From NCBI GenBank assembly GCA_965248925.1, contig CBDFLE010000006.1, positions 963,700 to 1,027,699 on the forward strand: DNA of 64,000 nucleotides. Direction: 5' to 3'. The stretch is from Candidatus Multivoradales bacterium. Its GTDB lineage: Bacteria; Acidobacteriota; Thermoanaerobaculia; Multivoradales; J023. Numbering within the stretch: the stretch's first letter is position 1; every line of letters starts with the position of its first letter. The position numbers and the translations under genes are program-made. Positions 2,930-47,246 of this stretch are shown one piece after another. The notes beneath the pieces were generated by a model. That model saw only the letters and a program-made list of their open reading frames with translations. It was not told where the DNA came from and searched no databases.

Positions 2930-2970
2930 TATTCTCTGGTGCCTCGCAAGCTCGCTGTCACATGTCCGCT

Positions 2971-29367: not shown

Positions 29368-29745
29368 CTATCCGCCGACCTCTTCGGTCGTGGCGTCATC
29401 AGCGCTGGCGGCAAAGCTGGCCACCGCCTCGGCTTCGTCGTCGTAGGATTCCAACAGCGGTAGGACCTGGCTGATCTCGAGCACGTCGCGAATCCGCCCA
29501 GCGGTCGACAGCAGCTTGAGCCGCGAGCCAAAACGGCCCGCCAGGCGATAGCCGGCCACCAACTCGCCAACCCCGGCACTATCGATACGGCTGAGTCCGG
29601 ACATGTTGAGCAGGATCTGCTTCCACTCGGCGGCAACCAGTTCGTTGATCACCTCGCGCAGCATCTCCTCAGGGCCACCGGCGATCAGACGGCCTTCGAG
29701 ATCGACGATCAGAGTTTTGCCGGACTGACGAAGTTCTACGTGCAT
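29368..29745 (-). CDS. STAS-domain anti-sigma-factor antagonist (SpoIIAA-like).
   Basis: LIVDLEGRLIAG...LNMSGLSRIDSAGVGELVAGYRLAGRFGSRLKL. Confidence 0.7.
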   Translation of the reverse strand: MHVELRQSGKTLIVDLEGRLIAGGPEEMLREVINELVAAEWKQILLNMSGLSRIDSAGVGELVAGYRLAGRFGSRLKLLSTAGRIRDVLEISQVLPLLESYDDEAEAVASFAASADDATTEEVGG

Positions 29746-29871
29746 AAGCTAAGCTCTCCTGGGTTCGCGGAGGCCGCAGGATAGCACGGCCAGAGGGCGG
29801 TGAAGCGATCGTCAGGGCACCGTCACAACAACCTCGGCGGCAGAGGGAATGTTGAGCAAGGGAGAGGGTCG

Positions 29872-30217: not shown

Positions 30218-30376
30218 GAGCTGGCGGTCGCTGCTTGTGGCGGCTCGAGGGCGGATTGATCGACCGTCTACCTGGCTGCGTAGCATTAGGATACGATCCC
30301 CCCCACCAAACGCCTTATGAACACCAGAATCTTGGACTTCTTGCCGATGAACATTGCTGCAGATTGGCCGCGGCGC

Positions 30377-32101
30377 ATGGCCGGCGCCGCGGCGCTCGGG
30401 CTGTGGGCGTTGGCCTGCTCGGTAGAGTCTCCGGCGCCCGGCGGCGGCGACACCTCACATGCGCCGTGGTTCGTCGAGGTGCAGGACACCTCGGGACTCG
30501 ACTTCCGCCACCAGCACGGCGGCAGCGGCGAGCGCTACATGATCGAAACCATGACCGGCGGCGCCGGCTTGCTCGACTTCGACAACGATGGTTGGCTCGA
30601 CGCCTACCTGGTGCAGAGTGGGCCGCTGCCGGGTTTCGCCGATCAGACACCGCTACCCAACCAGCTCTATCGCCACCGCGGCGACGGGATCAACTTCGAA
30701 GACGTCACCGAGGGCTCGGGAGCCGGCGACACCGGCTACGGCATCGGCACCTGCTTCGGCGACATCGACAACGACGGCTGGATCGACATCTACGTCACCA
30801 ATCTCGGTCAGGACACGCTGCTGCGCAACCGCGGCCTGAGCGACGGCCGAGTCACCTTCGAAGACGTCACCGCGGCGGCCGGCATCGACAGCCCGGCCTA
30901 TGGCTCGAGCTGCGCTTTCGCCGACTACGACCGCGACGGCTGCCTCGACCTGTTCGTGGTCAACTTTGTCAACTTCACCCTTGAGAACCACCTGCGCTGC
31001 GGCGCCGAGAAGTTGCGCACCTACTGCTCGCCCGACGTCTACGACGGCCTGCCCGACCAGCTCTACCGCAATCACTGCGACGGCTCAGGCGGTTTCGACG
31101 ACGTCTCCGAGGCCGCCGGGGTGGTCAACCACGACCCCGAGCAGGGCAAGGGGTTGGGGGTGGTTTGGACCGACTTCGATGACGACGGCGACCTCGACAT
31201 CTACGTCGCCAACGACTCGACTCGCAACTTCCTCTACAGCAACCGCGGCGACGGCACCTTCGAGGACGTGGCGATCTTCGCCGGCGCCGCCTTCAACGAC
31301 CGCGGCCTGACCGAAGCCAGCATGGGGCTCGACGCCGGCGACTACGACGGCGACGGCCGCCTCGACCTGTTCATGACCCACCTCGACTTCGAGTCCAACA
31401 CCCTCTATCGCAACGCCCCCAACAACCTCTTCCTCGACTCCAGCGCCATGACCGGGGTGGTGACGCCGAGCGCCACGCGGGTCGGCTTCGGAACCAACTT
31501 CCTCGACTTCGACCACGATGGCGACAACGATCTCTTCGTCGCCAACGGCCATATTCTCGACAACGCCAAGGAGCGTAATCCGACCCTCGACTACGAGCAG
31601 CGCAACCAGCTGCTGGAGAATCGCGATGGCCGTTTCGTCGACGTTTCGGGGCAGGCCGGCGAGCATTTCACGATCCGCCGGGTCGGCCGGGCCTCGGCCA
31701 CCGGCGACCTCGACAACGACGGCGATCTCGATCTGCTGATCGCCAACTCCAACCGCGAGGTCGTGGTGCTGCGCAACCAGCGCGAGCTGATCGGCGGCGG
31801 GCGCCGCTGGCTGATGCTGCGCCTGCTGAGCCGCCACGGTGGCCGCGACGCGATCGGCAGCCGAGTGCGGGTCATTGCCGGCGATCGGATCTGGGTCGAC
31901 GAGATCCACAGCGGCGCCAGCTACCTCGCCCAGAGCGATCTGCGGGTCCATTTCGGACTGGGAGAGATCGATCGCATCGACCGGATCGAGATCCGCTGGC
32001 CGGAGGGGGAAATCCAGCAGCTCGATGGCGCCGGCTTGGAGCTCGACCGGCTGCACACCCTCCGCCAGCCGGCTGCGCCAGCCGCGGAGGAAGGCCGATG
32101 A
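30377..32101 (+). CDS. CRTAC1-family protein (FG-GAP/VCBS repeats + ASPIC/UnbV domain), lipoprotein.
   Basis: Repeated DxDxDGxxD FG-GAP motifs (FDNDGWLD, DIDNDGWID, DLDNDGDLD) and C-terminal UnbV-like segment. Lipobox LWALACS. Confidence 0.75.
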   Translation: MAGAAALGLWALACSVESPAPGGGDTSHAPWFVEVQDTSGLDFRHQHGGSGERYMIETMTGGAGLLDFDNDGWLDAYLVQSGPLPGFADQTPLPNQLYRHRGDGINFEDVTEGSGAGDTGYGIGTCFGDIDNDGWIDIYVTNLGQDTLLRNRGLSDGRVTFEDVTAAAGIDSPAYGSSCAFADYDRDGCLDLFVVNFVNFTLENHLRCGAEKLRTYCSPDVYDGLPDQLYRNHCDGSGGFDDVSEAAGVVNHDPEQGKGLGVVWTDFDDDGDLDIYVANDSTRNFLYSNRGDGTFEDVAIFAGAAFNDRGLTEASMGLDAGDYDGDGRLDLFMTHLDFESNTLYRNAPNNLFLDSSAMTGVVTPSATRVGFGTNFLDFDHDGDNDLFVANGHILDNAKERNPTLDYEQRNQLLENRDGRFVDVSGQAGEHFTIRRVGRASATGDLDNDGDLDLLIANSNREVVVLRNQRELIGGGRRWLMLRLLSRHGGRDAIGSRVRVIAGDRIWVDEIHSGASYLAQSDLRVHFGLGEIDRIDRIEIRWPEGEIQQLDGAGLELDRLHTLRQPAAPAAEEGR

Positions 32102-33576
32102 CCCGCTCGCTGAGGGTGCTTTGCGCCGCGGCCCTGCTGCTCGCTGCCTGCGCTGCCGATCCATCGCCGCCGCCGGCCTACCAGCTGACGCCGGAAGAGC
32201 AAGCGCTGATGGCCCGGATCACCGAGCTGCAATCGCTGCGCGAGTACGATGAAGGCATCGCCGCGGCCGAGGCTTTTCTCGCCACCCATCCCGACGCCCG
32301 CCGGATCCACTACGCGATAGGCGTGTTGCACGGCCTGTCGGACCGGCACCGGCAGGCGCTGGCAGCTTTCGAGCAAGAGCTGGCCATCGACCCGACTCAT
32401 CTGGCGAGCTATCGCGGCAGCGCCACGGCACATACCTTGCTCGGCCAAGCAGAGGCCGCTATCGAGAAGCTCCGTCAGGCATTGCAGATCGCTGCCGATC
32501 GTCCCGAGGTCATGCTGGATCTTGGTAGGGCACTTTCGAACTTCGGCCAACTCGACCAAGCCGAGCCGCTACTGCGCCAGGCGTCTCACAGCGGTGGCGC
32601 AGCAGCCCGGGTCGAGCTCGGCATCCTGCTGCGCCGCCAGGGCCGGCTCGAGGAGGCGGCGGAGGCCTTCCGCAAGGCTCTGCAAGAGGATCCTCGGCAG
32701 CTCAGTGCGATGTCCAACCTCGGCCAGACTTTGAGCGCGCTGGGTCGAGCCGCCGAGGGCCAAGCTCTCTTGCGGCATCACGCCCGGCAGGCATCCCTGC
32801 ACGACCGACTCGATATCTATCAGCGCAGTAGCCTGCTCGAGGGCGCGACAGCGGCCAACTTCCTGCAATTGGCGATACTGCAAATCCGCTCCCGCAAGAC
32901 CGCCGAGGCCGTCGAGTCCTATCGCCGAGCCCTGGAGCTGGATCCTCGATCGACGACCGCCACCCTCGGTCTGGCGGCTCTCTTCCGCCAGAACGGACAA
33001 GCCGGCGAGGCGACCAAGTGGACGGTCCACACCCTGCTGATCGATCCGCAAAACAGCAAGGCGCACTTTCTCCTCGGCATGCTCCGCTTGTCGAAGGGGC
33101 AGCTCGATCTGGCGCTACAAGCTTTCGCGACTTCGCGCCAGCACGAACCTTGGCAGGCCGAGGCCTACTGGCGAACCGGTAACGTCCTTCGATCCCGCTC
33201 CCAGCTGGACCAGGCAGAGCAACACTACCGTCAAGCGCTGGCCTTGAATCCAGAATCAGCGCCAGCACTCTTCGGCATCGGCTTCAGCCAAATGTTGCGA
33301 GGCGAACCAGACCTGGCCATCGCCAACTTACGCCACGCGGCCGCACTGAATAGCTCGGACGCCGACAGTCAGCTGCTGCTCGGCCTGGCGCTGGCCGCCA
33401 GCGGTGACCCTGCGGGGGCAGAAGATATCTGGCGCTCGGCCGCCACCCTGCACCGACTCGATCTGCTGACCGGCAAGACCCTCGAGCAGCTACTGGCACC
33501 GTTCTCGGCCTTGCAAGCCCTCGACGCCACCGCCGCCGGCTTGGAGCGCTACCGGGCGCTGTTGGCGCCGGGGTAG
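32098..33576 (+). CDS. TPR-repeat lipoprotein.
   Basis: Signal peptide LLLAACA, multiple TPR units. Overlaps upstream and downstream genes. Confidence 0.75.
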   Translation: MTRSLRVLCAAALLLAACAADPSPPPAYQLTPEEQALMARITELQSLREYDEGIAAAEAFLATHPDARRIHYAIGVLHGLSDRHRQALAAFEQELAIDPTHLASYRGSATAHTLLGQAEAAIEKLRQALQIAADRPEVMLDLGRALSNFGQLDQAEPLLRQASHSGGAAARVELGILLRRQGRLEEAAEAFRKALQEDPRQLSAMSNLGQTLSALGRAAEGQALLRHHARQASLHDRLDIYQRSSLLEGATAANFLQLAILQIRSRKTAEAVESYRRALELDPRSTTATLGLAALFRQNGQAGEATKWTVHTLLIDPQNSKAHFLLGMLRLSKGQLDLALQAFATSRQHEPWQAEAYWRTGNVLRSRSQLDQAEQHYRQALALNPESAPALFGIGFSQMLRGEPDLAIANLRHAAALNSSDADSQLLLGLALAASGDPAGAEDIWRSAATLHRLDLLTGKTLEQLLAPFSALQALDATAAGLERYRALLAPG

Positions 33577-33585
33577 GGCCGAGCG

Positions 33586-35844
33586 GTGTTGAGGCGGTAC
33601 AGCGCCTGCCTGCTGGCGGCGGCCCTGCAGATCTCCTGCGGTGAAGCCGAAGACCGCTCCCAGCCTACGGGCTCTCACCTCCCAGCGACCTCACCGGCCC
33701 GGCCAGCCGTGGTAGAGCCCCATCGACCCGCCCCCATCCGACCGCCGGGCAATGCGGATCTGCCCCCCTTCTCGGAGCTGCTTTCCGAGGCCATCGAAGC
33801 CCCCGACCCGATGCGCTCGCTGACTCTGGGCCGGCAACGGGTCGCCCTGGTCCGGGACCGCCTGGATCGCGCCGGCAAGGCGCGCGAGCGTTTTCAGCTG
33901 ACCGTCGCGCTGGGCCGCGAGCAGCTCTGGGCTGGTCAGACCGAGGAGGCGATCAAGACCTTTCGCGGGGCGCTCGAGATGCCGGCGGCGACCGAGCATG
34001 CCGAGGAACGCCGCCAAGTGCGCAAATGGGTGGCGATCGCCTACCTCCGCCTGGGCGAGGAAGAGAACTGCCTGGCGCTGCACCGGGCGGGCTCGTGCAT
34101 CTTGCCGATCGCCGAGGACGCTCGCCACGTCGAGCAACGCGGCTCAAAGGCCGCCATGGCGGAGCTGATCGCGCTGCTCGCCGAGAAGCCCACCCCTGGG
34201 CTGCGCTGGCTGCTGAACCTGGCGGCGATGACCCTCGGCGAGTATCCCGACGGGGTTCCCGCCGAGCACCGCCTCCCCCGCCGCCTGCTGGCGGGCGAAA
34301 CCAGCGAGTTGCCGCGATTCGTCGACCGGGCGGCGGAGTTCGGGCTCTCGGCAGCTGGACTCTCGGGCGGCGTCGTCACCGAGGACTTCGACGGCGACGG
34401 CCGGCTCGACGTGATGGTGTCCTCATGGGGGCTGCACGATCCGCTACGGTTGTTCCGCAACCAGGGCAATGGCACCTTCGCCGAGGCTGGCACCGCGGCC
34501 GGTCTCGGAGATGAGCTGGGCGGCTTGAACCTGATCCACGCCGACGACAACAACGACGGCCATCCCGACGTGCTGGTGCTGCGCGGCGCCTGGTTGGGCG
34601 CCGCCGGGCTGCATCCCAACTCGCTGTTGCGCAACCACGGCGACGGCACCTTCAGCAACGTCACCCTAGAAGCCGGCCTGCTCGGCTACGCCCCGACCCA
34701 GACCGCGGCTTGGGCCGACTACGACGGCGATGGTTGGCTCGATCTGTTGATCGGCAACGAGGCCGGCAGCGGCGCCTACACACCCTGCCAGCTGTATCGC
34801 AATCACGGCGACGGCACCTACTCGGACGTCGCGCCGCAGCTCGGGCTGGACATCTCGGCCTTCGTCAAAGGGGTCGCCTGGGGCGACTACGACGACGACG
34901 GCTGGCCTGATCTCTACCTGTCGATCTTCGGCCAGCCCAACCGGCTGTTGCGCAACCAAGGTCCGGCGGCCGGTTTTCGCTTTGCCGACGTCACCCGGGC
35001 CGCCGGGGTGGCGCAGCCGCTCAAGAGCTTCGCCACCTGGTTCTGGGACTACGACAACGACGGCCTGCTCGACCTGCTCGCCGCTTCCTACTCGGGCCTC
35101 AGCGCCGAGTCGCTCGACGAGGTGGTCCGCGACCTGCTCGGCGAAGAGACCGCGGGCGAGCGGCCGCGCCTCTACCGCAACCGCGGCGACGGCACCTTCG
35201 AAGACCACACCGCGGCGGCCGGCCTCGACACCGTGCTGCTGGCGATGGGCGCCAACTACGGCGATCTCGACAACGACGGCTTTCTCGACGTCTACTTCGG
35301 CACCGGCGAGCCGAGCTTCTCGACCCTGGTGCCCAACCGCATGTTCCACAACCGAGCCGGCCGCACCTTTGACGACGTCTCGCTCGCCGCCGGCTTCGGC
35401 CATCTGCAGAAGGGCCACGCCATCGCCTTCGCCGACCTCGACAACGACGGCGACCAGGATGTCTACGCGGTGATCGGCGGCGCCTATGCCGGCGACGTCT
35501 ACCCCGATGCGGTGTTCGTCAACCCGGGCAGCAGCAACCGCTGGCTGACCCTGCGCCTCGAAGGCAGGCGCGCCAACCGATCGGCGATCGGCGCGAGGGT
35601 CGAGGTCCGAGTGGTGGCGCCCGGCGGCGAACGTTCGATCTTCCGCACCGTCAGCACCGGTGGCAGCTTCGGCTCGTCGAGCTTGCAGCTGGAGATCGGC
35701 TTGGGCTCGGCCGCGGAGCTGCTGGAGGTGAACATTCGCTGGCCGCTTCCGGGTCTGGGCCGGCAACGCTTCACCGATCTCGAGAGCAATACGATCTACC
35801 GCTTGATCGAGGGCGAGCAGGAGGCGATTCGAGAGCTACCCTAG
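33586..35844 (+). CDS. CRTAC1-family protein (FG-GAP/VCBS + ASPIC/UnbV) with N-terminal TPR-like region.
   Basis: FG-GAP motifs (FDGDGRLD, YDGDGWLD, YDDDGWPD, DLDNDGFLD, DLDNDGDQD) and UnbV-like C-terminus. Confidence 0.75.
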   Translation: MLRRYSACLLAAALQISCGEAEDRSQPTGSHLPATSPARPAVVEPHRPAPIRPPGNADLPPFSELLSEAIEAPDPMRSLTLGRQRVALVRDRLDRAGKARERFQLTVALGREQLWAGQTEEAIKTFRGALEMPAATEHAEERRQVRKWVAIAYLRLGEEENCLALHRAGSCILPIAEDARHVEQRGSKAAMAELIALLAEKPTPGLRWLLNLAAMTLGEYPDGVPAEHRLPRRLLAGETSELPRFVDRAAEFGLSAAGLSGGVVTEDFDGDGRLDVMVSSWGLHDPLRLFRNQGNGTFAEAGTAAGLGDELGGLNLIHADDNNDGHPDVLVLRGAWLGAAGLHPNSLLRNHGDGTFSNVTLEAGLLGYAPTQTAAWADYDGDGWLDLLIGNEAGSGAYTPCQLYRNHGDGTYSDVAPQLGLDISAFVKGVAWGDYDDDGWPDLYLSIFGQPNRLLRNQGPAAGFRFADVTRAAGVAQPLKSFATWFWDYDNDGLLDLLAASYSGLSAESLDEVVRDLLGEETAGERPRLYRNRGDGTFEDHTAAAGLDTVLLAMGANYGDLDNDGFLDVYFGTGEPSFSTLVPNRMFHNRAGRTFDDVSLAAGFGHLQKGHAIAFADLDNDGDQDVYAVIGGAYAGDVYPDAVFVNPGSSNRWLTLRLEGRRANRSAIGARVEVRVVAPGGERSIFRTVSTGGSFGSSSLQLEIGLGSAAELLEVNIRWPLPGLGRQRFTDLESNTIYRLIEGEQEAIRELP

Positions 35845-35921
35845 CCTGCTGCGCTCAACAAAAATGGCATCCCGAAGGATGCCATTTTTGTTAGACAAGC
35901 TGTAGCCGCGGTCGATCTGGA

Positions 35922-36605
35922 TCAATCGACGGTGAAGCCCTGCAGCTCGACCGGCACCAACGAGCAGCCGGTGGCGGTGACTTCGATGATGTCCAGGGTG
36001 TACGCTCCGGCAGCTGTGTTCCAGCCATCGGCGATCAAGAAGTAATCAGTCCCTGCGGTGGCAGTGAAAGTAATGTCTTCTCCGGTACCACCATTGTCCT
36101 GGGAAGCGATGCAAGTTCCCGCCAGATTCGTGCAGTCGGTGACGACGTAGATCACCTCGTCATGAGCGCCATCTATCAGAGCATTGACATCGCAGGTGAC
36201 ATCGACTTGCACCCGCCAGGCTTCGTCGTTGGCGCTGCTATTGAAAGTCGTGTCACAAACCCCACCGATGCCGGCGATGTCATAGTCGGCGGAAAGAGCG
36301 GTGGTGTCACCGCCACTGGAGTACGGCACGGCGCCAACCTCGTTCGTCGTGCCAGGGCACATGTCAGCGGGCGCGCGATTGATCGGCAGGACCTTCTGAC
36401 CCAGGATGGTCGCGGTGCCGGCCGGAGCCTTGGCGGCTGGCATCATCTCTTGGTAGGCGGCCCGCTCGCTCGGGGTCAAGCTATGCCAGGTCAATTTGAC
36501 CTGATCCCAGTCGATGTCCTGAGCGGCGAGAGGGCTGGTGAGCAGCAAGGCGACAATGGCTAGCAAACAAGCGAGGCGTGAGAAGCTCTTCATGAATAAC
36601 TCCAA
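35922..36605 (-). CDS. Secreted Cys-rich protein with PPC-like C-terminal domain ending in the tail EVTATGCSLVPVELQGFTVD.
   Basis: Signal peptide MKSFSRLACLLAIVALLLTSPLAA. The C-terminal tail recurs at 37388 and 43702. Confidence 0.55.
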   Translation of the reverse strand: MELFMKSFSRLACLLAIVALLLTSPLAAQDIDWDQVKLTWHSLTPSERAAYQEMMPAAKAPAGTATILGQKVLPINRAPADMCPGTTNEVGAVPYSSGGDTTALSADYDIAGIGGVCDTTFNSSANDEAWRVQVDVTCDVNALIDGAHDEVIYVVTDCTNLAGTCIASQDNGGTGEDITFTATAGTDYFLIADGWNTAAGAYTLDIIEVTATGCSLVPVELQGFTVD

Positions 36606-36730
36606 AGTTCTGTTTCGAGACGGCTCGGATCAACGGCCATCTCAGGTACTCATACACTCAAGCTTTCTTGCCACATGGCTCGAAGCTCGGCAATCTCCAA
36701 ACAATCTGTTGGGCTGGTTAGGTCTGGATC

Positions 36731-37285
36731 TCAAGCGAGGCGGGGCGGCGGGTCCGGCGGCGCGCCCTCAAATAGCCTAGCGATCAGCGGTACGGAGGCC
36801 GACGAGGCCGCCAGAGAGGCCTCGGGCAGGCCGGGAACCCTACGGAGGTCCGCCGGGCTCGAACGCTGCGACGACGTCGCGGATTGCGTATCCTGACACC
36901 GCGGCACCTGGACGTCGAAGCTGCCGAGCACCACTTCGCGGTCGACGATCACCTCGCTACCGCGCGCGGCGACCCGCAGCTGGTAGGTCTGGACTCCGTC
37001 CGAAGCCGAATGACCTACCCGGTAGTCGGCGTTGCCGGGGATCGCCGGCAGCTCGTAGAGCAGCTCGAAGTCCTCCAGGCCACCGCGGCGGTAGAGCCGG
37101 AACACCCAACCGGGGCCGGCAGTGGTCGCCTCCCAGGCAATGTCGAGTTCCCCCGTCGAGTGGATCACCAGGGGCTGCTGCGCGGCTACCTCCGCGGACC
37201 GCGGCGTCACCGGCAACTCGACCCGCGCGGACGCAGGTAGGCCTTGCCACACGACTACAAGGCAACTCGCAATGGCCCCGACCAT
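36731..37285 (-). CDS. Secreted hypothetical protein.
   Basis: 184-aa ORF with N-terminal hydrophobic segment. No recognisable domain. Confidence 0.35.
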   Translation of the reverse strand: MVGAIASCLVVVWQGLPASARVELPVTPRSAEVAAQQPLVIHSTGELDIAWEATTAGPGWVFRLYRRGGLEDFELLYELPAIPGNADYRVGHSASDGVQTYQLRVAARGSEVIVDREVVLGSFDVQVPRCQDTQSATSSQRSSPADLRRVPGLPEASLAASSASVPLIARLFEGAPPDPPPRLA

Positions 37286-37387
37286 CCACCTCCCGGCAGG
37301 ATCGGATACGGAAACCCGTCGTTCGTTTCTGATAGGGGATTACTACCACAGAGACCCGTTGCCCGCAAGCGCATCCCGGCTTGGCGG

Positions 37388-37582
37388 TCAATCGACCCTG
37401 AAGCTCTGCAGCTCCACCGGGATCGAGCAACCGGTGGCGGTGGCTTCAGAAATCTGCCGCCAGGCGGCGGCGATCAGCTCGTTGATCACTCCGCGAAACA
37501 TCTCCTCAAGGCCGCCGGCGACCCGACGGCCTTCGAGGTCGACGATCAAGGTGCTGCTGGACTGACCAAGCTCTACCTGCAT
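37388..37582 (-). pseudogene. Chimeric 64-aa ORF: N-terminal 45 aa of a STAS antagonist paralog fused to the C-terminal tail ...ATGCSIPVELQSFRVD of a secreted-protein paralog.
   Basis: MQVELGQSSSTLIVDLEGRRVAGGLEEMFRGVINELIAAAWRQ is ~85% nt-identical to 29620..29745. The last 65 nt are ~85% identical to 35922..35987. Confidence 0.5.
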
Positions 37583-37643
37583 GGGCTATGCTCCCCGGGC
37601 GCCGCAGGGTGTCTTGCAAACCGTGCCAAGGTCTGCGGAAACC

Positions 37644-37695
37644 GCAAGATCGCACTGCAAGATCGCACTGCAAGATCGCACTGCAAGATCGCACT
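37644..37695. repeat. Perfect 13-bp tandem repeat x4 (gcaagatcgcact) in the intergenic/promoter region upstream of the DHS-like gene.
   Basis: Read directly: accgcaagatcgcactgcaagatcgcactgcaagatcgcactgcaagatcgcactgcgg. Confidence 0.85.
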
Positions 37696-37755
37696 GCGGA
37701 AGCGCCGCGACAGCCGCCGGCGGCAGATGGAAAGCCGACGTGAGGAGTCCGCCCC

Positions 37756-38736
37756 TTGAGCGACGAAAATATCTCAGTGCGCGACTTCATGCGGCGCAAC
37801 TTTCGCCACTTCAACGCCCGCTCGGTGGTCGAGGCGGCCGACGCCTGGGTCGCTCAGCTGCGCCAGGGCAACCACATGTTTCTCACCCTGGCTGGGGCGA
37901 TGAGCACCGCCGAGATCGGCCTCCAGCTGGCCGAGATGATCCGCCGTGGCAAAGTCCACGGCATCTGCTGCACCGGCGCCAATCTCGAGGAAGACCTGTT
38001 CAACCTGGTCGCCCACGACCACTACCAGCGGATCGCCGATTGGCGTTCGCTGACCGCCGGGAATGAGGCCGAACTCGCCGAGCACGGCCTCAACCGGGTG
38101 ACCGACACCTGTATCCCTGAAGTCCAGGCGATGCGCAAGATCGAGCAGCTGATCGCCCTGCGGTGGCACGATGCCGAGGCCGCTGGCCAGCGCCACCTGC
38201 CGCACCAGTTCGTCTATCAGCTGCTACTCAGCGGCGACCTCGAGGAGGCTTACCAGATCGATCCCAACGACTGCTGGCTATTGGCGGCGGCGCAGCGGGA
38301 CCTGCCCCTCTTCGTCCCCGGCTGGGAGGATTCGACCCTCGGCAACATGTTCGTCGCCCGCCATCTGAGCGGCGAGATCGCCAATCTCGACACCGTCAAA
38401 GGGGGCTTGCACTACATGCAGGAATTGGTCGATTGGTACCGCCGCGAGACGGCGGAGCGATGTCTCGGGTTTTTCCAAATCGGTGGCGGAATCGCCGGCG
38501 ATTTCCCAATCTGCGTGGTGCCGCTGATCCAACAGGATCTGGACCAGGAGATTGGCTTGTGGTCCTACTTCTGCCAGGTCAGCGACAGCACCACCTCCTA
38601 CGGCTCCTACAGTGGCGCGGTGCCGAACGAGAAGATCAGCTGGGGCAAACTGGCGCCGGAGACGCCGAAGTTCATCATCGAGAGCGACGCTTCGATCGTC
38701 GCGCCGCTGGTCTTCGCCTGGGTCCTGGCAAGCTAG
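37756..38736 (+). CDS. Deoxyhypusine synthase-like (DHS/homospermidine-synthase family) protein.
   Basis: FMRRNFRHFNARSV...TLAGAMSTAEIG...KVHGICCTGANLEEDLFNL. TTG start with GAGGAG RBS. Confidence 0.75.
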   Translation: MSDENISVRDFMRRNFRHFNARSVVEAADAWVAQLRQGNHMFLTLAGAMSTAEIGLQLAEMIRRGKVHGICCTGANLEEDLFNLVAHDHYQRIADWRSLTAGNEAELAEHGLNRVTDTCIPEVQAMRKIEQLIALRWHDAEAAGQRHLPHQFVYQLLLSGDLEEAYQIDPNDCWLLAAAQRDLPLFVPGWEDSTLGNMFVARHLSGEIANLDTVKGGLHYMQELVDWYRRETAERCLGFFQIGGGIAGDFPICVVPLIQQDLDQEIGLWSYFCQVSDSTTSYGSYSGAVPNEKISWGKLAPETPKFIIESDASIVAPLVFAWVLAS

Positions 38737-38811
38737 CCGCGACGGTCGACTAGAACGTGGTGTGTTAAAACAGGGACCGCCACTCTTTGACCCAACTCTG
38801 GAGGACCGCCC

Positions 38812-40197
38812 ATGGCCCGCTTCCGCGTCCCGCACACGCTCGTCCTGCTCTTCGCCATGATCGTCTTGGCCCTGCTGATGTCCTACATCCTGCCCCAGGG
38901 CGAGTTCGAGCGCTTCGAGAACGCCAACGGTCGGCAGCAGGTCAAGGCGGGCACCTACACCATGCTCGAGGACGTCGAGCGAGTCTCGCCGCTGGCCATC
39001 TTCACCGCCATTCCTCGGGGCTTCGAAGCGGCGGCGGAGATCATCTTCTTCGTCTTCATCGCCGGTGGCATGTTCGCCGTGCTGCGCAAAACCGGCACCG
39101 TCGACGCGCTGATTGGCCTCTTGCTCGACAAACTGGGCGGCGCCCCACAGCTGCTGATCGGCGGCGGCATCTTCGTCTTCGCCGTCGGCTCAAGCACCAT
39201 CGGCATGGCCGAGGAGTACATCCCCTTCGTGCCGGTGCTGCTCGCCCTATGCTTCGGCCTGGGCTTCGACGCGGTGACCGCCATCGGCATCCTCTGCGTT
39301 GGCTACGGGGTGGGCTATGGCACCGCGCTGATCAACCCTTTCACCGTGCTGATCGCCCAGGACGTCGCCGAGCTGCAGCCGACCTCGGGACTGGGTTATC
39401 GCGCGCTGCTGTTCTTCGTCTTCGTGGCACTCGGCACGCACCACGTCTGGTCCTACGCCAAGCGAGTGCGCAAAGACCCGGCGGCGAGCCTGGTGGCCGA
39501 CATTGAGCCCGACCCGAGCCTCAAGGCCGCCGAGCGGGTACCGATGACCAGCAGCCATTGGCTGATCCTGGCCATTCTGCTGGCGACCATCGGTCTGATC
39601 GTCTGGGGCCTCAGTCAGTGGTCGGGATGGCATTGGTACGTCCACGAAATGGGCGCTGTCTTTCTAGGTTTGTCCGTGGTGTTGGCGCTGGTCGGCCGGC
39701 TGAGTCCAGACTCCGCCGCCAAATCGTTCTGTGCCGGCGCTGCCGAACTCACCACCACGGCGTTGCTGATCGGTTTTGCCCGCTCGATTCTGATCATCCT
39801 CGAAGACGGCAGGGTGATCGACACTTTGGTGCACGGTATCTCGCTGCCCTTGACCCACGCCGGTCCGATGCTGGCGGCGGGCGGCATGCTGGCCTTCCAG
39901 AGCCTGTGCAACCTCTTCATCCCCTCCGGCTCGGGCCAGGCCTACGTCACCATGCCGATCATGGCGCCGCTCGGCGACTTGGTTGGAGTGCAACGGCAGG
40001 TGGCGGTGCTGGCCTACCAATTCGGCGACGGCTTGACCAACATCCTGGTGCCCACCAACGCGGTGTTGATCGGCATCCTGACCATGGCCCGGATCCCTTA
40101 CGACCGCTGGTTACGCTTCATCCTGCCGTTCATGTTCAAGGCCTGGGCCTTGGCCGCCGTGGCCTTGGCGGTGGCGGTCTGGTTCGGTTACAACTAG
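38812..40197 (+). CDS. YfcC-family polytopic transporter (putative basic amino acid/C4-dicarboxylate carrier-like).
   Basis: 461 aa, ~12 TM. Architecture and motifs ([18 protein letters not shown]) are consistent with YfcC/DcuC-like carriers. Family call is moderate. Confidence 0.55.
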
Positions 40198-40235
40198 AAT
40201 TCGTCCTTCCACTACTTGTTCGAGGATCTCTTTCT

Positions 40236-42893
40236 ATGCCCTCAGGCCTTGCCCGTTTCTTATCGCCATCGCCCGGTGTGTTCCGCCTCTCCACCAAGAC
40301 CGTGGGCAGTCTGCTGCTGGCCGCCACCCTGCTGCTGGCGGGTTGTGGCGACTCGGGGGAGCCACCGGCCTTCAAAATCTTGCTCGAGCACTCGGGGGTC
40401 TATGCGGTCAGCTGGGATCAGCTGAGCCTCGCCGGCCTCGGCCAACGGCGCCCCGACTCCGCGAACCTCGGCGTCACCCACCTCGGCGAACCGCTGCCGA
40501 TTTGGTTGGTCGACGGCGGCGATGGCCACTTCGACCCCGGCGACCATTTCGAGTTCATCGGCCAAGCTCGCCCCGGAGACAGGTCCTATTTCAGCGAACA
40601 TGATCCCTGGAATGCCTACCGCCTGAGCTTCGATGGCAGCGCCGTCGAGCGCTTGCAAGACGGCTCCACCACCGCCGGCAGCTCTAGCCCAGCTGCTTCG
40701 GCAAGCGGTTTCTTCAGTGTTCGGGAGCACCTTGAACGTGATCGTCTGATGCTGCGCTTCGCCCGCGACCGCACGGGCACCTCACCCGAGCCCTGGTACT
40801 GGGCCAAGCTGACTCAGATCGACCACCATCCCTTCAAGCAGCTGCTCGACCTCTCGACCTTGGATCGCCAATCGCCACGGCCCTTGTCCCTGCGCATTGA
40901 GCTGCGCGGTTGGTCGAAGCAGCCGCGCAAGCCGGCCGGCGCTGCGGCCGATCATCGCGTCGAAGTGCTGTTTAACCAAGAGTTGATCGGCGCTGGTGAG
41001 TGGGATGGCCAAGAGGCCTTCGTCATCGACATTCCGCAAGTGCCCCGCAAGCTCCTGCGGCGGCGCGCTGAGCAAGCTCTGAAGCTGCGAATACCGCAAC
41101 GCAAGGCTGGAGACAAGGACGAGTTCCTGGTCGATGTGGTGATGCTGAACTGGATCGAGATCGAATTTCCGCGCACGGATCAACTGAGCGAAGTCCAGGA
41201 GCGTCTGTTCCTCGACGGCGCCGATCTCGCAACTCCCCTGCGCCTCGAATCCAACGCTCCACCGGTGCTCTACAGCGACCGCTTCCGGATCGAAATCGAC
41301 CCGGCGGCGGACGGCACTTTCTTGCCTCCCGCCGAAAATGCACGGCTCTACGCCGTACCCACCGGTACCCTGTTGACCGCGGACAGGGTGCTGATCGACA
41401 CCCCTTCCTCGCTGCGCGACGACCAGCTCCAAGCCGACTATTTGATGATCGCCCATCGCAGTCTGAAGCAAGAGATCGAGCCCCTCGCCAAGCTCCACCG
41501 CGAGCGCGGCTTGGCGGTCACGGTGATCGACGCGGAGGACATCTACGACGAGTTCTCCCACGGCCTGGTCGAGCCGCGGGCCATCCGTGACTTTATCGAC
41601 CACGCCTACCATCACTGGCAAGCGCCGCGGCCACGCTTCGTGCTACTGGTGGGCGACGCCAGTTGGGATACTCGCAACGAGGACAATCTGGACCGCAACT
41701 ACGCCGATTGGACCTACCGCGGTGGCGAAGTGCGGCGCTTCTGGAAGAACGACAGCACCGCCTATGCCGACGACAGCGGCGCTAGCCGCAACCTGATTCC
41801 AACCTGGCACTACCAGTCCCACGAGGGCCACGCCGCCAGCGACAACTTCTTTGTCAATGTCGCCGCCCGCTTGGAGGGCGACGCCGACGCAGTGAAGAAC
41901 TTCCACCCCGAGCTGGCGATCGGTCGCTTGCCGGTGACCGAGCCGGCGGAAGTCGCCCAGATCGTCGCCAAGATCAAGCGCTACGTCGAGACTCCCCAGG
42001 TTGGCGAATGGAAACGGCGGGTGCTGTGGATCACCAACGAGAACCGCATCTACCAAAAGCAAGACGACAATCTGGCCAATAAACTAGGGGCCCATGGCTA
42101 CGCCGCGGCCAAGATCTACCCCAAACCGCAAGAGAAAGACAACGTCCACCACCAGCAAGCACTGCTCGACGCCTTCGACGAGGGCAACCTCCTGGTCCAC
42201 TTCATCGGCCACGGCGGCCGCTACATCTGGCGCACCGGGCCGCCCGATGTGCGCAAGAACCACGACCTCTTCACCCTCGATCACCTCGATCAACTACAGC
42301 CCCACGACCGGCTGCCGGTGGTGCTCAGCCTGACCTGCTACTCGGCCCCCTTCGACCACCCATCGGCCGATTCAATCGGCGAGAAGTTCCTGCGCCTGCC
42401 AGATCGCGGCGCCATCGCGGTGTTCGCCGCCTCCTGGCGCAACAATCCAACTTCGTGGTTTGGCGAGACCTTGACCCATGAACTCACCGACCGCCAAGTC
42501 GCTACCGTCGGCGAAGCGATCCGCCGTGCCAAACGGCAAATCCGCAACGCCGACCTAGTCGAGACCTACAACTTGCTGGGCGACCCGGCCTTGCCCCTGG
42601 CACGACCTCAGCTGGATCTGGAGTTGGCCCTAGAGGCCGACCGGCAGGTGCTGAAGGTGCGGCTACCAACCAAGAAATTCAACGGCCAGGCGATCGTCGA
42701 CTGGCACGGCTACAGCGGTGAATTAATCAACAGCGACCAGATCGAGGTGCGCGGCGACACCTTCGAGGCGCCGTGTCCGGCAAACTGCGGCGAACCAGGT
42801 GGCACGGTGCGGATCTATGCTTGGGACCCGCGGCAACAGCTCGACGCGGTCGGCGGAATGCGCTTCAAAGGCTCGCCGAACAAGCCCTCTTGA
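40236..42893 (+). CDS. Gingipain-like peptidase C25 family lipoprotein.
   Basis: Lipobox LLLAGCGD. C25 catalytic His/Cys context: FVLLVGDASWD, LLVHFIGHGGRY, VVLSLTCYSAPFD. Confidence 0.7.
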   Translation: MPSGLARFLSPSPGVFRLSTKTVGSLLLAATLLLAGCGDSGEPPAFKILLEHSGVYAVSWDQLSLAGLGQRRPDSANLGVTHLGEPLPIWLVDGGDGHFDPGDHFEFIGQARPGDRSYFSEHDPWNAYRLSFDGSAVERLQDGSTTAGSSSPAASASGFFSVREHLERDRLMLRFARDRTGTSPEPWYWAKLTQIDHHPFKQLLDLSTLDRQSPRPLSLRIELRGWSKQPRKPAGAAADHRVEVLFNQELIGAGEWDGQEAFVIDIPQVPRKLLRRRAEQALKLRIPQRKAGDKDEFLVDVVMLNWIEIEFPRTDQLSEVQERLFLDGADLATPLRLESNAPPVLYSDRFRIEIDPAADGTFLPPAENARLYAVPTGTLLTADRVLIDTPSSLRDDQLQADYLMIAHRSLKQEIEPLAKLHRERGLAVTVIDAEDIYDEFSHGLVEPRAIRDFIDHAYHHWQAPRPRFVLLVGDASWDTRNEDNLDRNYADWTYRGGEVRRFWKNDSTAYADDSGASRNLIPTWHYQSHEGHAASDNFFVNVAARLEGDADAVKNFHPELAIGRLPVTEPAEVAQIVAKIKRYVETPQVGEWKRRVLWITNENRIYQKQDDNLANKLGAHGYAAAKIYPKPQEKDNVHHQQALLDAFDEGNLLVHFIGHGGRYIWRTGPPDVRKNHDLFTLDHLDQLQPHDRLPVVLSLTCYSAPFDHPSADSIGEKFLRLPDRGAIAVFAASWRNNPTSWFGETLTHELTDRQVATVGEAIRRAKRQIRNADLVETYNLLGDPALPLARPQLDLELALEADRQVLKVRLPTKKFNGQAIVDWHGYSGELINSDQIEVRGDTFEAPCPANCGEPGGTVRIYAWDPRQQLDAVGGMRFKGSPNKPS

Positions 42894-43078
42894 GCTGCTT
42901 GCAGGCCCAGTTTGATCCATGGTATTCTTCCTCTACTAATTAAAGACTAGCGGAACTTGAGGGAGATCCAAGGCCCGCTCGACACTCTCCCCGTGCCTTG
43001 CCGGCGGAGAAAGTCAACCCAACCCCAACGCCCCTCTGCGGTCTCACTTTCAGACCAGCGGATCGGAGGAATTCTGGA

Positions 43079-43702
43079 ATGTTGAAGATTGCACGCTTTG
43101 CCTTGATCGCCGCCGCCCTCTGCCTGGTGGTCGGCAGCGCCTGGAGCACCGGCAGCGTCACCACCGGCGATGCCGCGGTGCCAATCCCTGACAACTCCGC
43201 CGGCACTTTCGCCTGCCAATCGCTGATGGTGGCTGCCGACGGGGTCAACGGTGACAACATCACCGATCTGACGGTGACCATCGGTGTGGATCACTCCTGG
43301 GTTGGCGACACCACCCTACAGCTGACCGGCCCGAATTGTGGCCCACTCAACGTTTACGCCCGCCCGGGCGCCGCGGCCGGCGTCGGCGCCGGCGATTCGA
43401 GCGATCTCTGCGCGGCGACGCCGCTCGGCTTCAACGATGGCAACGCGACGGATGCCGAAACCATGGGCGCCCCCGAAGCTGGCGGGTCCTGCGTCGGCAC
43501 TTCCGGTCCGCTGGCGTATTTCTCCAACGGTGACGAGGTGGGTGGTGCGATGACCCTGACCGGCTGTGTTGGCACGGATGCGGTGGGCTCCTGGATGCTG
43601 TGCATCGACGACGCCGGGGGTGGCGACACCGGCACTCTGCAGACCTGGACCCTCGACGTGACCACCGATCCGGTGGAGCTGATCGAGTTCAGCGTCGACT
43701 GA
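43079..43702 (+). CDS. Secreted protein with P-domain-like region ending in the tail ...TLDVTTDPVELIEFSVD.
   Basis: Signal peptide MLKIARFALIAAALCLVVGSAWS. GGAGG RBS. The C-terminal motif is shared with 35922..36605. Confidence 0.55.
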   Translation: MLKIARFALIAAALCLVVGSAWSTGSVTTGDAAVPIPDNSAGTFACQSLMVAADGVNGDNITDLTVTIGVDHSWVGDTTLQLTGPNCGPLNVYARPGAAAGVGAGDSSDLCAATPLGFNDGNATDAETMGAPEAGGSCVGTSGPLAYFSNGDEVGGAMTLTGCVGTDAVGSWMLCIDDAGGGDTGTLQTWTLDVTTDPVELIEFSVD

Positions 43703-43799
43703 GCCGAACTCTGATAGAGCATTGAGAGGGAGCCGCTTCTCCGGAGGCGGCTCTTGTTGTTTATGCCGCCTGAGACTTGCTTCGACGGGTGGAGCCTGG

Positions 43800-45563
43800 A
43801 TGCCCAAGCACCAACATCTTGCCTACCTGACCGCGTTGCTGAACTTGGTCATCGCTGTCGCCTGCGGCTCGCCGGCCAACGAGTTCAGCGGCGCCGACTC
43901 TGGCACAGCGGTCAGCAGCCGCCCACCAATGGTCGACCGTGCATTGGAGCTGGGGCTCGACTTCACCCATTGGAACGGCATGATCGGCGAGCTCTACCCG
44001 GTCGAAGCGCTGGGCTCCGGCGCCGCATTGTTCGACTACGATGGCGATGGCGACCTCGACATCTACCTGGTCCAAGGAAACCTGCTCGGCCCCGAGGCCG
44101 ATCCCAAGCTGGCCGTCCTGCCGCCGCCAGGAGAGCTACCGCTCGGCGATCGGCTGTTCCGCAACGAGCTGGCCGAGAGCGGTGCGCTGCGCTTCACCGA
44201 GGTCACCGAAGAGGCCGGCCTCGAGGCCACCGGCTACGGCATGGGAGTGGCGGTGGGCGATGTCGATGGCGATGGCCACCTAGACCTCTACCTGACCAAC
44301 CTCGGCGCCGACCAGCTGTGGCACAATCGCGGCGACGGCAGCTTCGAAGACTGGACATTGCACTCACGGGTCGCGGTAGACGGCTTGTCGACCGCTGCCA
44401 GCCTCTTCGACATGGAGGGCGACGGTGACCTTGATCTCTACGTCGGGCGCTACATCGACTGGAGCTACGCCCTGCATCAGCTGTGCTTCCAGCCGAGCTC
44501 GGCTCTCGACTACTGCGGCCCGGAGAGCTTCCGCGCCGCTGCCGACCTGCTGTGGCGAAACCGTGGCAACGGCATCTTTGAAGACTGGACCGCCGAGGCC
44601 GGCTTGCAGACCGCCTATGGCAAGGCCCTGGCGGTGAGCGCCGGCGACTTCGATGGCGACCACCACCCCGACCTCATGGTGGCCAACGACGCGATGGAGA
44701 ACCAGCTGTGGATCGGCCGCGGCGACGCCACCTTTGCCGATCAGGGGGTTGAACGCGGTATTGCCCACAACGGCGCCGCCGAGCGGGAAGCTTCGATGGG
44801 CATTGCGATCGGCGATGTCGACGGCGACGGCGATCAAGATGTGCTGCTAGCCCATTTGAGCACCGAGACCAACACCCTCTACTCCAACGACGGCAGCGGC
44901 TACTTCCAAGACACTACCCGCTCGGCCGGGTTGGCGGCACCGAGCTTGCCCTTCACCTCTTTCGGCACCGCCTTCTTCGACCTCGACAACGACGGCTGGC
45001 TCGACCTCTTCACGGTCAGCGGCGCGGTGCGTATCGACCCCACCCAGCAGCAGGCCGGCGCGATCTATCCCCTGGCTCAGACCAATCAGCTGTTTCACAA
45101 CGTCGGCGACGGCCGCTTCGAAGATTGGACCGCCACCGCCGGGGAAGTCTGGCGCCTGGCCGAGGTCAGCCGCGGCGCCGCCATCGGCGATCTCGACAAC
45201 GACGGCGACAGTGACATTCTGCTGGTCAACAGCAACGGTCCAGCACGGCTGCTGATCAACCAAATCGGCCAGGATCGGCCGTGGCTCGGTCTGCGCTTGG
45301 TCGATCGCTCCGGCGGCGACGCTCTAGGAGCCCGTGCCGAGGTGCATCGCCAAGGCGTGGCGCCCTTGGTCCGGGTGGTGCGAACCGATGGCAGCTACCT
45401 CTCCGCCAGTGACCCCCGGCTGCTGTTCGGCCTGGGCGACCAACCGGTGATCGATCGCTTGCGGGTCGTCTGGGCGGACGGGCAAGCTGAGACTTTTCCA
45501 CCGCCTTCAATCGGCCGCTATCACCAGTTGCAGCGTGGACAGGGGGCCACCTCCAAGGATTGA
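43800..45563 (+). CDS. CRTAC1-family protein (FG-GAP/VCBS + ASPIC/UnbV), lipoprotein.
   Basis: FG-GAP motifs (YDGDGDLD, DVDGDGHLD, DMEGDGDLD, DFDGDHHPD, DVDGDGDQD, DLDNDGDSD) and UnbV-like end. Confidence 0.75.
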   Translation: MPKHQHLAYLTALLNLVIAVACGSPANEFSGADSGTAVSSRPPMVDRALELGLDFTHWNGMIGELYPVEALGSGAALFDYDGDGDLDIYLVQGNLLGPEADPKLAVLPPPGELPLGDRLFRNELAESGALRFTEVTEEAGLEATGYGMGVAVGDVDGDGHLDLYLTNLGADQLWHNRGDGSFEDWTLHSRVAVDGLSTAASLFDMEGDGDLDLYVGRYIDWSYALHQLCFQPSSALDYCGPESFRAAADLLWRNRGNGIFEDWTAEAGLQTAYGKALAVSAGDFDGDHHPDLMVANDAMENQLWIGRGDATFADQGVERGIAHNGAAEREASMGIAIGDVDGDGDQDVLLAHLSTETNTLYSNDGSGYFQDTTRSAGLAAPSLPFTSFGTAFFDLDNDGWLDLFTVSGAVRIDPTQQQAGAIYPLAQTNQLFHNVGDGRFEDWTATAGEVWRLAEVSRGAAIGDLDNDGDSDILLVNSNGPARLLINQIGQDRPWLGLRLVDRSGGDALGARAEVHRQGVAPLVRVVRTDGSYLSASDPRLLFGLGDQPVIDRLRVVWADGQAETFPPPSIGRYHQLQRGQGATSKD

Positions 45564-45644
45564 AGCTCGGCTCGGCACCGACCTCGACCCCCAACCATCT
45601 GGTGTAGGATGAGTTGTCTTCAATGACCGCTCTGATCCCATTCC

Positions 45645-47246
45645 ATGACCGTTCCTCCTTCAGGCTGCTCGCGCTGGACCCCCTTGTTGGCGGCGCTGTG
45701 CTTGGCCCTGTGTTCCGCCTGCGATAAACCCCCTTCCACGACACGGGATCCGCCGCCCAGCTTGGCCGAGATCCCCTGGCCCGACCTCGATCAGCTGGCC
45801 CCCGAAATAGCCGCCCAACTGCGCCAACAACGCCTGACCTTGGAGGCCCTGCAACAGCAATCCACCGGCCGCAGCGCAGAGCTAGGCCAGGCATACGGTG
45901 CCGCCGGCCGGCTCTTCCACGCTTACCAGTTGCACACCGCGGCCGAGGGTTGCTACCAGTACGCCCGCGCCCTGCAACCCGAAATGGCCGAGTGGCGCTA
46001 CTACTTGGGTCGCTTGCACGCCACCTTGGGGAATTCATCGGCGGCGGCTACCGAATTCGAGGCTTTTCTCAAACTCAGGCCTGACGACCGACCTGCCCGC
46101 CTGGCCCTAGGACAGGCGCTGGCCGAAATGGGGGACACGGCGGGTGCTCGCGCCGCGTTCGCAAAGCTGTTGGCCGAGGAAGAGGGTGCCGTCGCTCATT
46201 TCGAACTCGGCCAGCTTGACGCCGAGGGCAGCGATTTCGCCGCCGCCGCGAACCACTTCGAACGCGCCCTCGCCTTGCAACCTTCCGCCAGCCGGCTCCA
46301 CCTGCCTCTAGCGCGAGCTTACCGCCAGCTAGGAAGAGAGGATGATGCCGAGCACCACCTGGCCCAACGCGGTAACGGTCCGCTACAAATCGAAGATCCG
46401 CTGATCGAGCAGCTCGGTCAGCTGGCCACCGGCTTTCGCTCGTTCGCCAATCGGGGCGTGACCGCCTTTCGCCAGCGCGACTACCGCGCCGCCACCGCGG
46501 CCTTTGCCAAAGCCGTCGAACTCGAACCCGACAACGCCAACGCGCGGCAGAACCTGGCTTCGGCGTTGCTGCTCAGCGGCCAGCCGGAGCCGGCCGAGCA
46601 TCACTACCGCGAAGCCATCCGACTGCAACCCGACCTCGCCCAGGCGCATTTCAACCTAGGTACGTTGCTAGCCGGCAAGGGCGACCGCGCAGCGGCCATC
46701 GAACAGCTACTTCAAGCTGTCGAGCTAGTGCCTTCGTATCGCGACGCTCACTTCAACCTCGCCAAGCAGCTGCTCGACAGCCGCCGCTGGGACGACTCTC
46801 ATCTACACTTCGAGAGGGTCTTGGAACTCGATCCGGGCAACGCCGGGGCCTACCTCGGTACTAGCCGCAGCCTAGCCGGCAGAGGCCGCTGGGCGGAAGC
46901 CCTGCGCCGGCTCGAGAAAGGGCGCCAGACGCTAGCCGAAGATCCGCGAATCCTCATCTCCCAGACCCGACTGCTGGCCGCGGCCCCCGACCCGTTGGTG
47001 CGTGATGGCGATCGTGCGCTGGCTCTTGCCGAGGGCTTGTTGCGACGGCAGCGCACCGTGCCCCATCTGGTAATCCACGCCATGGCATTGGCCGAGCTGG
47101 GCCGCTTCGAAGAAGCCGCCGCCCAACAGCTTGCGGCGATCGAGCTGGCAGGCGCCACCGGTGCAGTGCCCGAGCATTTGCCACTCAGTCTCGACCTCTA
47201 CCTGGCGGACAGGCCCTGCCGCGAGCCCTGGCCCGGCATCGGCTAA
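45645..47246 (+). CDS. TPR-repeat lipoprotein.
   Basis: Signal peptide with lipobox LCSAC. More than 8 TPR units. Confidence 0.7.
   Translation: MTVPPSGCSRWTPLLAALCLALCSACDKPPSTTRDPPPSLAEIPWPDLDQLAPEIAAQLRQQRLTLEALQQQSTGRSAELGQAYGAAGRLFHAYQLHTAAEGCYQYARALQPEMAEWRYYLGRLHATLGNSSAAATEFEAFLKLRPDDRPARLALGQALAEMGDTAGARAAFAKLLAEEEGAVAHFELGQLDAEGSDFAAAANHFERALALQPSASRLHLPLARAYRQLGREDDAEHHLAQRGNGPLQIEDPLIEQLGQLATGFRSFANRGVTAFRQRDYRAATAAFAKAVELEPDNANARQNLASALLLSGQPEPAEHHYREAIRLQPDLAQAHFNLGTLLAGKGDRAAAIEQLLQAVELVPSYRDAHFNLAKQLLDSRRWDDSHLHFERVLELDPGNAGAYLGTSRSLAGRGRWAEALRRLEKGRQTLAEDPRILISQTRLLAAAPDPLVRDGDRALALAEGLLRRQRTVPHLVIHAMALAELGRFEEAAAQQLAAIELAGATGAVPEHLPLSLDLYLADRPCREPWPGIG

Follow-up and report, generated by a model that had tools for sequence, protein, structure and literature searches.

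C-terminal signals that are served by dedicated enzymes organise much of the bacterial surface; LPXTG with sortase, PEP-CTERM with exosortase, and the C-terminal domain (CTD) of type IX secretion systems (T9SS) with PorU are the familiar pairs. Fold completion in trans is, to our knowledge, known from pili and not as a general device for sorting cargo. In the type V pili (FimA/Mfa1) of Porphyromonas gingivalis, lipoprotein pilins are primed by the C25-family Arg-gingipain, and the following subunit donates a C-terminal strand that lies in a groove in place of the N-terminal one; the final residues of this donated strand are essential (PMC13655056). Here we analyse a stretch of 64,000 nucleotides (nt), the window, from Candidatus Multivoradales bacterium (Acidobacteriota; contig CBDFLE010000006.1, positions 963,700 to 1,027,699 of the forward strand), in which a gene for a PorU-like C25 peptidase lies between two genes for secreted proteins that end in the same short tail, PVELxxFxVD. 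We propose that this tail is a C-terminal sorting or tethering tag, that the tagged cargo would be tethered by completing in trans the fold of a small acceptor protein, and that the C25 peptidase would be the associated processing enzyme, a reading that we judge to stand somewhat better than even.

The first-pass annotation, made from the letters of the window, had reported the tail at the ends of three open reading frames (ORFs), and it is there in all three, each time directly before a TGA stop (Table 1). A search of all six frames of the window finds [VIL]E[LMIV]..F.[VIL][DE] four times, with a stop codon directly after it in three cases. Two of the ORFs are intact genes: 35922..36605 encodes a secreted beta-sandwich protein of 223-227 aa with a signal peptide and conserved Cys pairs, and 43079..43702, which starts 186 nt downstream of the C25 gene on the same strand, a secreted protein with a proprotein-convertase P-domain (PF01483). 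Terminator-like hairpins follow both stops, ~30 nt past the first and directly after the second, so that the tails are the true C-termini of both proteins. A database search gave 12 homologues of the beta-sandwich protein, at 32-60% identity; all 12 end at the same residue (TATGCxL[VI]PVELxxFxxx-COOH), and the P, V, E, L and F of the tag are invariant in every one. Read-through or recoding at the TGA stops is ruled out by the immediate hairpins and by these homologues with their common last residue. The third ORF, 37388..37582, has the tail and is nevertheless no gene but a pseudogene scrap that joins two duplicated pieces: the final 63 nt match 35922..35984, where 35922..36605 has its 3' end, with 82.5% identity, and the upstream part matches 29615..29763, which belongs to the STAS-domain gene 29371..29748, with 80.5% identity over 149 nt. 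A repeat in the DNA was considered as the cause of the recurring tail and rejected, as only this scrap shares DNA with 35922..36605; the tail of the P-domain gene differs at the DNA level, and the recurrence is therefore one of protein. The bodies had been described as PPC- or P-domain-like, which holds for the P-domain protein; the PPC-like call for the beta-sandwich protein finds weak support in a predicted model that is mediocre and of low confidence overall (core pLDDT 74-81, tag residues 218-223 below 50) and whose structural matches are generic jelly-rolls only.

Sequence comparisons support the view that the tail is a modular tag on secreted proteins and not the last strand of a PPC or P-domain body. 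The Pfam P-domain model ends at residue 193 of the 207 in the product of 43079..43702, which places the tag outside the P-domain. In the family alignment 6 of 17 sequences, the window protein and five homologues, end in the tag, and other homologues carry PEP-CTERM signals (PF07589) or tails of a transmembrane segment plus basic residues at exactly the same alignment position. A scan of metagenomes with a DNA pattern for the tag gave at least 125 matches in at least 120 stretches, most of them, among the matches listed, at the 3' end of a substantial ORF. At least 91 complete tag proteins were examined, and at least 90 non-redundant tails entered a logo with V/L/I/T at position -11, followed by P-V-E-L, Q/M/L, mostly S, F, S/G/T/E, V/I and, as the last residue, E (84%) or D. 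In the metagenome set the search pattern itself dictates P, V, E, L and F; the homology-derived sets, which left these five free to vary, show them invariant all the same. A signal-like N-terminus is present in at least 75 of 90 non-redundant tag proteins.

The cargo is varied. The 91 proteins include P-domain and DUF4082 proteins, multihaem cytochromes, cupredoxins, M14 carboxypeptidases, lactonase propellers and ExeM/NucH nucleases, along with the choice-of-anchor J, Q and R families of NCBIfam and FxDxF PEP-CTERM-type families. The term choice-of-anchor denotes, in NCBIfam naming, families that occur with alternative sorting signals. Since cupredoxin-type and cytochrome cargo occur, redox proteins may be among those tethered by the tag; one such protein, a small multihaem cytochrome with four CxxCH motifs, is encoded directly upstream of C25 and the candidate acceptor in a locus labelled Lysobacterales (L036, 8938..9594).

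The tail had not been recognised as a described sorting motif, and our searches agree. Pfam and NCBIfam models applied to the window proteins and the 91 tag proteins found nothing common to the tags, and Por_Secre_tail (PF18962/TIGR04183) matched neither the three window proteins nor the 91; literature searches returned no paper on PVELQSF, VELxxF or similar strings, and no relevant one on C25 with sorting or on PorU2/PorU-like proteins. The distinctions that the first-pass annotation drew also stand: unlike PEP-CTERM and LPXTG signals, the tail has no transmembrane helix or basic cluster, the chain stopping ten residues after the Pro, and with 10-11 residues and no family-model match it is far shorter than a T9SS CTD. 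A quite different possibility is that the tail has no function, being either the last strand of the body domains or the decayed remnant of a truncated C-terminal domain. The predicted structure of the beta-sandwich protein does draw the last residues as a strand, and the tag has its homologous counterpart within a longer domain of other proteins (described below). However, the tag occurs on many unrelated folds and outside the Pfam P-domain model, its five residues are invariant and its end fixed at identities as low as those given above, PEP-CTERM signals replace it in homologues, and tag residues 218-223 are modelled with a pLDDT below 50; we regard a functionless tail as very improbable.

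The gene between the two intact tag genes had been called as a C25 lipoprotein, and with 263 bits against PF01364 (cut-off 23) and a lipobox it is one (Table 1). Its catalytic dyad, H659 (in GHGG) and C701 (in TCYSAPFDH), is invariant in 20 homologues, and both the GHGG and the TC motif align with those of PorU in an alignment with 6za2. This T9SS sortase is the best solved relative (2e-34), the N-terminal region is PorU-like too, and the family also matches gingipain R. Against the PorU equivalog model NF033707 the protein scores 224.8 bits, below the cut-off of 420, and covers only model positions 362-743 of 1095; judged by these profiles it is PorU-like and not a PorU equivalog. There are more than 300 full-length homologues at 41-50% identity, and those with a named source come mostly from metagenome-assembled genomes (MAGs) of Acidobacteriota, Thermoanaerobaculia and Holophagae. 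No T9SS components were found among the annotated genes of the window. A multi-pass membrane protein of ~450 aa that matches PMT_2 (GT-C glycosyltransferase-like) adjoins C25 in 22 of the 80 C25-centred loci introduced below (e.g. L034, 8037..9413), a hint that some step of the system is glycan- or lipid-linked.

Tag genes are linked to C25 beyond the window as well. The 80 C25-centred loci, numbered with the prefix L as are the tag-centred ones, were taken from one-genome-per-species contigs; the taxon labels were taken over from MAG bins and can be in error. Thirteen of them hold 14 tag genes, which belong to at least eight unrelated families and carry the labels Acidobacteriota, Lysobacterales, Gammaproteobacteria, Deltaproteobacteria, Methylomirabilota and Chitinophagaceae. 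L023, L025, L036 and L042 each have the end of a tag gene 120-410 nt upstream of C25, and L040 has one ~1.4 kb upstream. Seen from the tag side, over at least 120 short metagenome loci centred on a tag gene (502 kb altogether), C25 is adjacent in two, where chance would give ~0.1-0.2; one of the two, L100, keeps the order of the window, with C25 first and a tagged P-domain protein after it. The most distant homologue of the beta-sandwich gene has a C25 gene at a distance of 5.4 kb. The co-occurrence of tag and C25 that the annotation had suggested is thus found in MAGs labelled as several phyla, sometimes with the genes side by side, and occurrences of the tag are both numerous and enriched near C25.

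Linkage of this kind, the conserved catalytic His and Cys of a PorU-related C25, and the position of the tag in place of PEP-CTERM signals in homologues would also suit an arrangement along the lines of the first-pass annotation, in which C25 recognises the tag directly as a cleavable signal and removes it with release or surface attachment of the cargo, as a sortase would, any further protein beside C25 being accessory or unrelated. This overlaps partly with our proposal, and as a full account we find it unlikely, for reasons that lie in the other neighbour of C25.

While the link between a modular tag and C25 had been seen correctly, this third component had been missed. Clustering of all C25 neighbours in the 80 loci identified as the dominant neighbour a small protein of 120-200 residues with a signal peptide, usually a lipobox Cys, a Pro/Ala/Glu-rich linker and a highly conserved domain of ~95 residues. 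The consensus of this domain is N-x-[IL]-[KR]-W-x-T-A-S-E-[VL]-[DE]-N-F-G-[FY]-D-[IV]-[YF]-R ... G-P-F ... Y-Y-Y-Y-V-E-S-I-S ... R-E-x-F-[ST]-P. By a family hidden Markov model (HMM) the protein, our candidate acceptor, is present in 56 of the 80 loci, and in 45 of these its gene comes right after C25 in the same orientation; it is present in 9 of the 13 loci that hold a tag gene; in the window it is encoded 8.3 kb downstream of C25. It belongs to no Pfam or NCBIfam family, a PDB sequence search with the domain returned chance-level matches only, and the pilin families (FimA/Mfa1-type) matched neither the acceptor nor the cargo proteins.

The domain also occurs in larger proteins. In two short contigs that contain no C25 (L118, 691..2286, plus strand; L178, 1802..3541, minus strand), proteins of 530-580 aa are encoded immediately downstream of a tag gene and end in an acceptor-like domain that lacks the strand discussed below and has only a low-complexity linker before it. 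In L217 (785..4561) a C25 peptidase of 1258 aa includes the whole domain in its chain, together with a first strand of its own (TPVTLSEVEIS...LVLRWTTATEAGNAGFHVY); a C25 that contains the domain amounts to a Rosetta-stone fusion and, at the level of sequence, supports an association of the two. An asparagine-synthase-like gene comes next, and the distance downstream to a tag gene is 5.4 kb. A hypothetical protein on a Methylomagnum ishizawai plasmid (L204, NZ_AP019785.1, CDS 1501..3759) has a segment ending in LLGDPSLRM, reminiscent of the end of a C25 catalytic domain, and then an acceptor-like VTWDASPEAGLLGYDVYGGRSATGPFVRLN; it matched no Pfam family.

A tblastn search of plasmids (7.3 Gb) with the acceptor domain matched a Hymenobacter protein annotated as 'T9SS type A sorting domain-containing protein' (E = 2e-4), in which ...PLPVQLVAFTG-QVQQRS-VVLRWATAQELQN... 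stands before and at the homologous region and a Por_Secre_tail domain follows. Twelve more Cytophagales copies were found behind varied upstream domains (LamG, RCC1, FG-GAP, CehA/McbA and others). All 13 begin with LP[VIL]xLxxF and 6 read LP[VI]ELxxF, with strands such as PLPVELLTFTA, PLPVELTAFTA, PLPVELTSFTA, PLPVELVRFTA and LPIELTDFSV. Because this start is the same behind differing upstream domains, the LPVEL strand belongs to the fused domain and not to the one that precedes it; the whole follows the pattern LPVELxxFTA, a turn, and then xxLxWxTAxE...YYRLxQVDxDG..YSPV.

The comparison of the two families reveals a split register. The acceptor HMM matches 12 Cytophagales copies (E = 6e-8 to 9e-4), with the alignment starting at residue 48-50, just past the strand and turn. 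Reciprocally, an HMM of the fused domain matches 31 of 31 acceptors (E = 3e-13 to 2e-8), and does so only from HMM position 9-17 onward; within the 45 residues upstream of the acceptor domain a PVEL..F-like motif is present in none of the 31. The alignment begins only there and it is other proteins that carry the motif, as their C-terminal end; the acceptor therefore represents this unnamed Cytophagales domain in split form. In residues and spacing, the invariant five of the tag reproduce the consensus of the strand missing from the acceptor, and we roughly estimate the odds of a chance match between the tag motif and the missing strand at ~1e-5. Given that the acceptor is homologous to a domain that starts with LPVELxxFTA and is itself without that strand, the tail is better explained as a detached beta-strand that would complete the domain in trans.

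These results suggest the following scheme. Sec-exported cargo would carry as its tag, [VLI]-P-V-E-L-(Q/M/L)-x-F-x-(V/I)-(E/D)-COOH, the detached first strand of a beta-sandwich (fn3/Ig-like) domain of ~100 residues, and a second, small protein encoded beside C25, in most cases a lipoprotein and equipped with a flexible linker, would supply the rest of this domain. After export, the C-terminal strand of the cargo would insert into the open edge of the acceptor domain (donor-strand complementation), and many different cargo proteins could thereby be tethered to one stalk, mostly lipid-anchored. For C25 several roles may be envisaged: it could prime the acceptor; it could trim or anchor the C-terminal extension of the acceptor, by analogy with PorU, which cuts just after the intact Cytophagales domain; or it could remove the tag from the cargo or release the cargo. 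That such a scheme amounts to an undescribed, T9SS-independent sorting system of mainly Acidobacteriota-labelled and some proteobacteria-labelled MAGs, with a one-strand tag, tethering in trans and C25 processing or attachment, and that it arose via a split of the domain preceding the CTD in Cytophagales, we put at a little short of an even chance.

The match between tag and missing strand is what direct recognition by C25 leaves without an account, as it does the pairing of tag genes with acceptor-like domains where no C25 is in view (L118, L178). PorU, moreover, recognises a folded CTD of 70-100 aa within the T9SS, and neither such a CTD nor T9SS genes were seen here. Alternatively, the tag might address another envelope machine, as a beta-signal-like strand for outer-membrane barrel assembly or as the target of some other secretion or tethering factor, the co-location with C25 and the small protein then reflecting only shared regulation of surface proteins. 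That the extreme C-terminus of these Sec-exported proteins has a hydrophobic pattern like that of a beta-strand would suit this, as would the many tag genes that lie away from C25 and acceptor. But the last residue is Glu or Asp and not the aromatic residue typical of beta-signals of outer-membrane proteins, the clustering of neighbours turned up no recurrent barrel or secretion gene beside the tag genes or C25, and the match to the missing strand of the acceptor would have to be the coincidence estimated above. We consider this alternative improbable.

Several observations nonetheless weigh against tethering by fold completion. No acceptor lies within reach in 24 of the 80 C25 loci, among them three with a tag gene directly upstream of C25 (L023, L025 and L042), and in L001 a tag gene has neither C25 nor an acceptor within 10 kb. 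The enrichment of tag genes near C25 is real and only roughly quantified. Some acceptors have no lipobox cysteine, which means that a membrane anchor is not universal. The assignment of the acceptor to the beta-sandwich folds draws on weak profile matches (Ig_J_second and the fn3 region of PelI, E ~0.01-0.1), and its structure model, a single-sequence one, is poor (pLDDT 58). The fused Cytophagales domain does not explain the near-invariant terminal Glu or Asp of the tag. Finally, we infer the binding of tag to acceptor from sequence and linkage, and the beta-sandwich fold, the cellular location and the substrate of C25 are likewise predictions.

Among described systems, the proposed tethering resembles type V pili in its lipoprotein acceptors, in a peptidase of the C25 family and in a C-terminal donor strand that would take the position of an N-terminal one. 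It differs in lacking a pilin fold and any sign of polymerisation, and in that the donors are dozens of unrelated cargo proteins in place of identical subunits; the acceptor here lacks its first strand genetically, whereas pilins lose theirs by cleavage, and the binding and the C25 cleavage seen in the pili are for our system predictions. With the T9SS and PorU it shares the PorU-like C25, cargo families that overlap (e.g. choice-of-anchor) and the domain itself, whose intact Cytophagales version stands directly upstream of PorU's cleavage target, the Por_Secre_tail CTD. In contrast to that system, the tag has 10-11 residues and not the 70-100 aa of the CTD, the C25 is without the C-terminal region of PorU, and the hosts are mostly Acidobacteriota-type MAGs. 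PEP-CTERM signals, which exosortase serves, occupy the same position on the same kind of cargo; the tag, however, lacks the transmembrane helix and basic cluster and ends in a free Glu/Asp carboxylate ten residues after the Pro, and the linked enzyme is a C25 peptidase and not an exosortase. Chaperone-usher pili likewise have an incomplete Ig-like fold that is completed by a strand of another chain, as we propose here. There, the missing G strand is C-terminal and the donor an N-terminal extension, whereas here the missing strand is N-terminal and the donor a C-terminal tail, and no chaperone or usher genes are seen.

The tag has no Pfam or NCBIfam model, yet it is found on a large and varied exported set (nucleases, cytochromes, cupredoxins, peptidases and adhesin-like repeat proteins) in poorly studied environmental lineages. 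If the split domain works as proposed, it would be a natural one-strand tag-and-catcher system and the first case of donor-strand complementation that serves general cargo tethering rather than pilus assembly. It would further give a function to many PorU-like C25 peptidases outside Bacteroidota, make the tagged exported set of these phyla predictable, and shed light on the role of the Cytophagales domain that stands before the T9SS CTD. A tag of ten residues with a partner of ~95 residues might also serve as a tool in protein engineering.

Table 1 Features of the 64,000-nt window that bear on the C-terminal tag; positions count from the first letter of the window
Feature	Position	Strand	Details
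Intrinsic-terminator-like hairpin	35856..35889	-	stem ATGGCATCC-TTCG-GGATGCCAT and T-run; seen by eye, absent from the list of the consensus scan
Tag-ending ORF (beta-sandwich protein)	35922..36605	-	C-terminus LVPVELQGFTVD-COOH; tag codons 35925..35954
184-aa protein	36731..37285	-	signal/anchor segment, fn3-like segment, conserved C-terminal PPxPPPR
Tag-ending ORF (pseudogene scrap)	37388..37582	-	C-terminus SIPVELQSFRVD; tag codons 37391..37420
C25 peptidase, lipoprotein	40236..42893	+	lipobox LLLAGC; PF01364, E = 6.7e-78
Tag-ending ORF (P-domain protein)	43079..43702	+	C-terminus DPVELIEFSVD-COOH; tag codons 43670..43699
Intrinsic-terminator-like hairpin	43728..43755	+	12 bp stem and T-run, directly after 43079..43702
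Proposed acceptor, 159-aa lipoprotein	51243..51722	+	lipobox LLVTC; low-complexity linker; ~95-aa domain NRVNWATASEVDIFGYDIYRGESPDGPFERV...YYYYVENISMSNQREHL; family HMM 6.1e-43

The 184-aa protein of Table 1 is the conserved upstream neighbour of the beta-sandwich family, with synteny in L001 and L002 (the L001 copy at 9270..9836). Its family is small, with 6 matches, the query included, in 1.84 billion proteins. It was considered as an acceptor and rejected on account of this tiny family, a strand-like segment of its own at the N-terminus, and synteny that extends only to the beta-sandwich family.

Beside the pseudogene scrap and both of its copied pieces, the rearranged stretch 37388..37760 contains a perfect tandem repeat of 13 nt, GCAAGATCGCACT, in 4.2 copies at 37644..37697. 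On the flanks of the tag genes lie three genes of the FG-GAP/UnbV_ASPIC type (in 30290..33576, 33586..35844 and 43722..47246), of which two have a TPR gene after them, and the homologue in L001 has these neighbours too. One TPR protein, 45645..47246, matches TPR_Slam with 36.6 bits against a cut-off of 35.2, which is probably generic TPR similarity.

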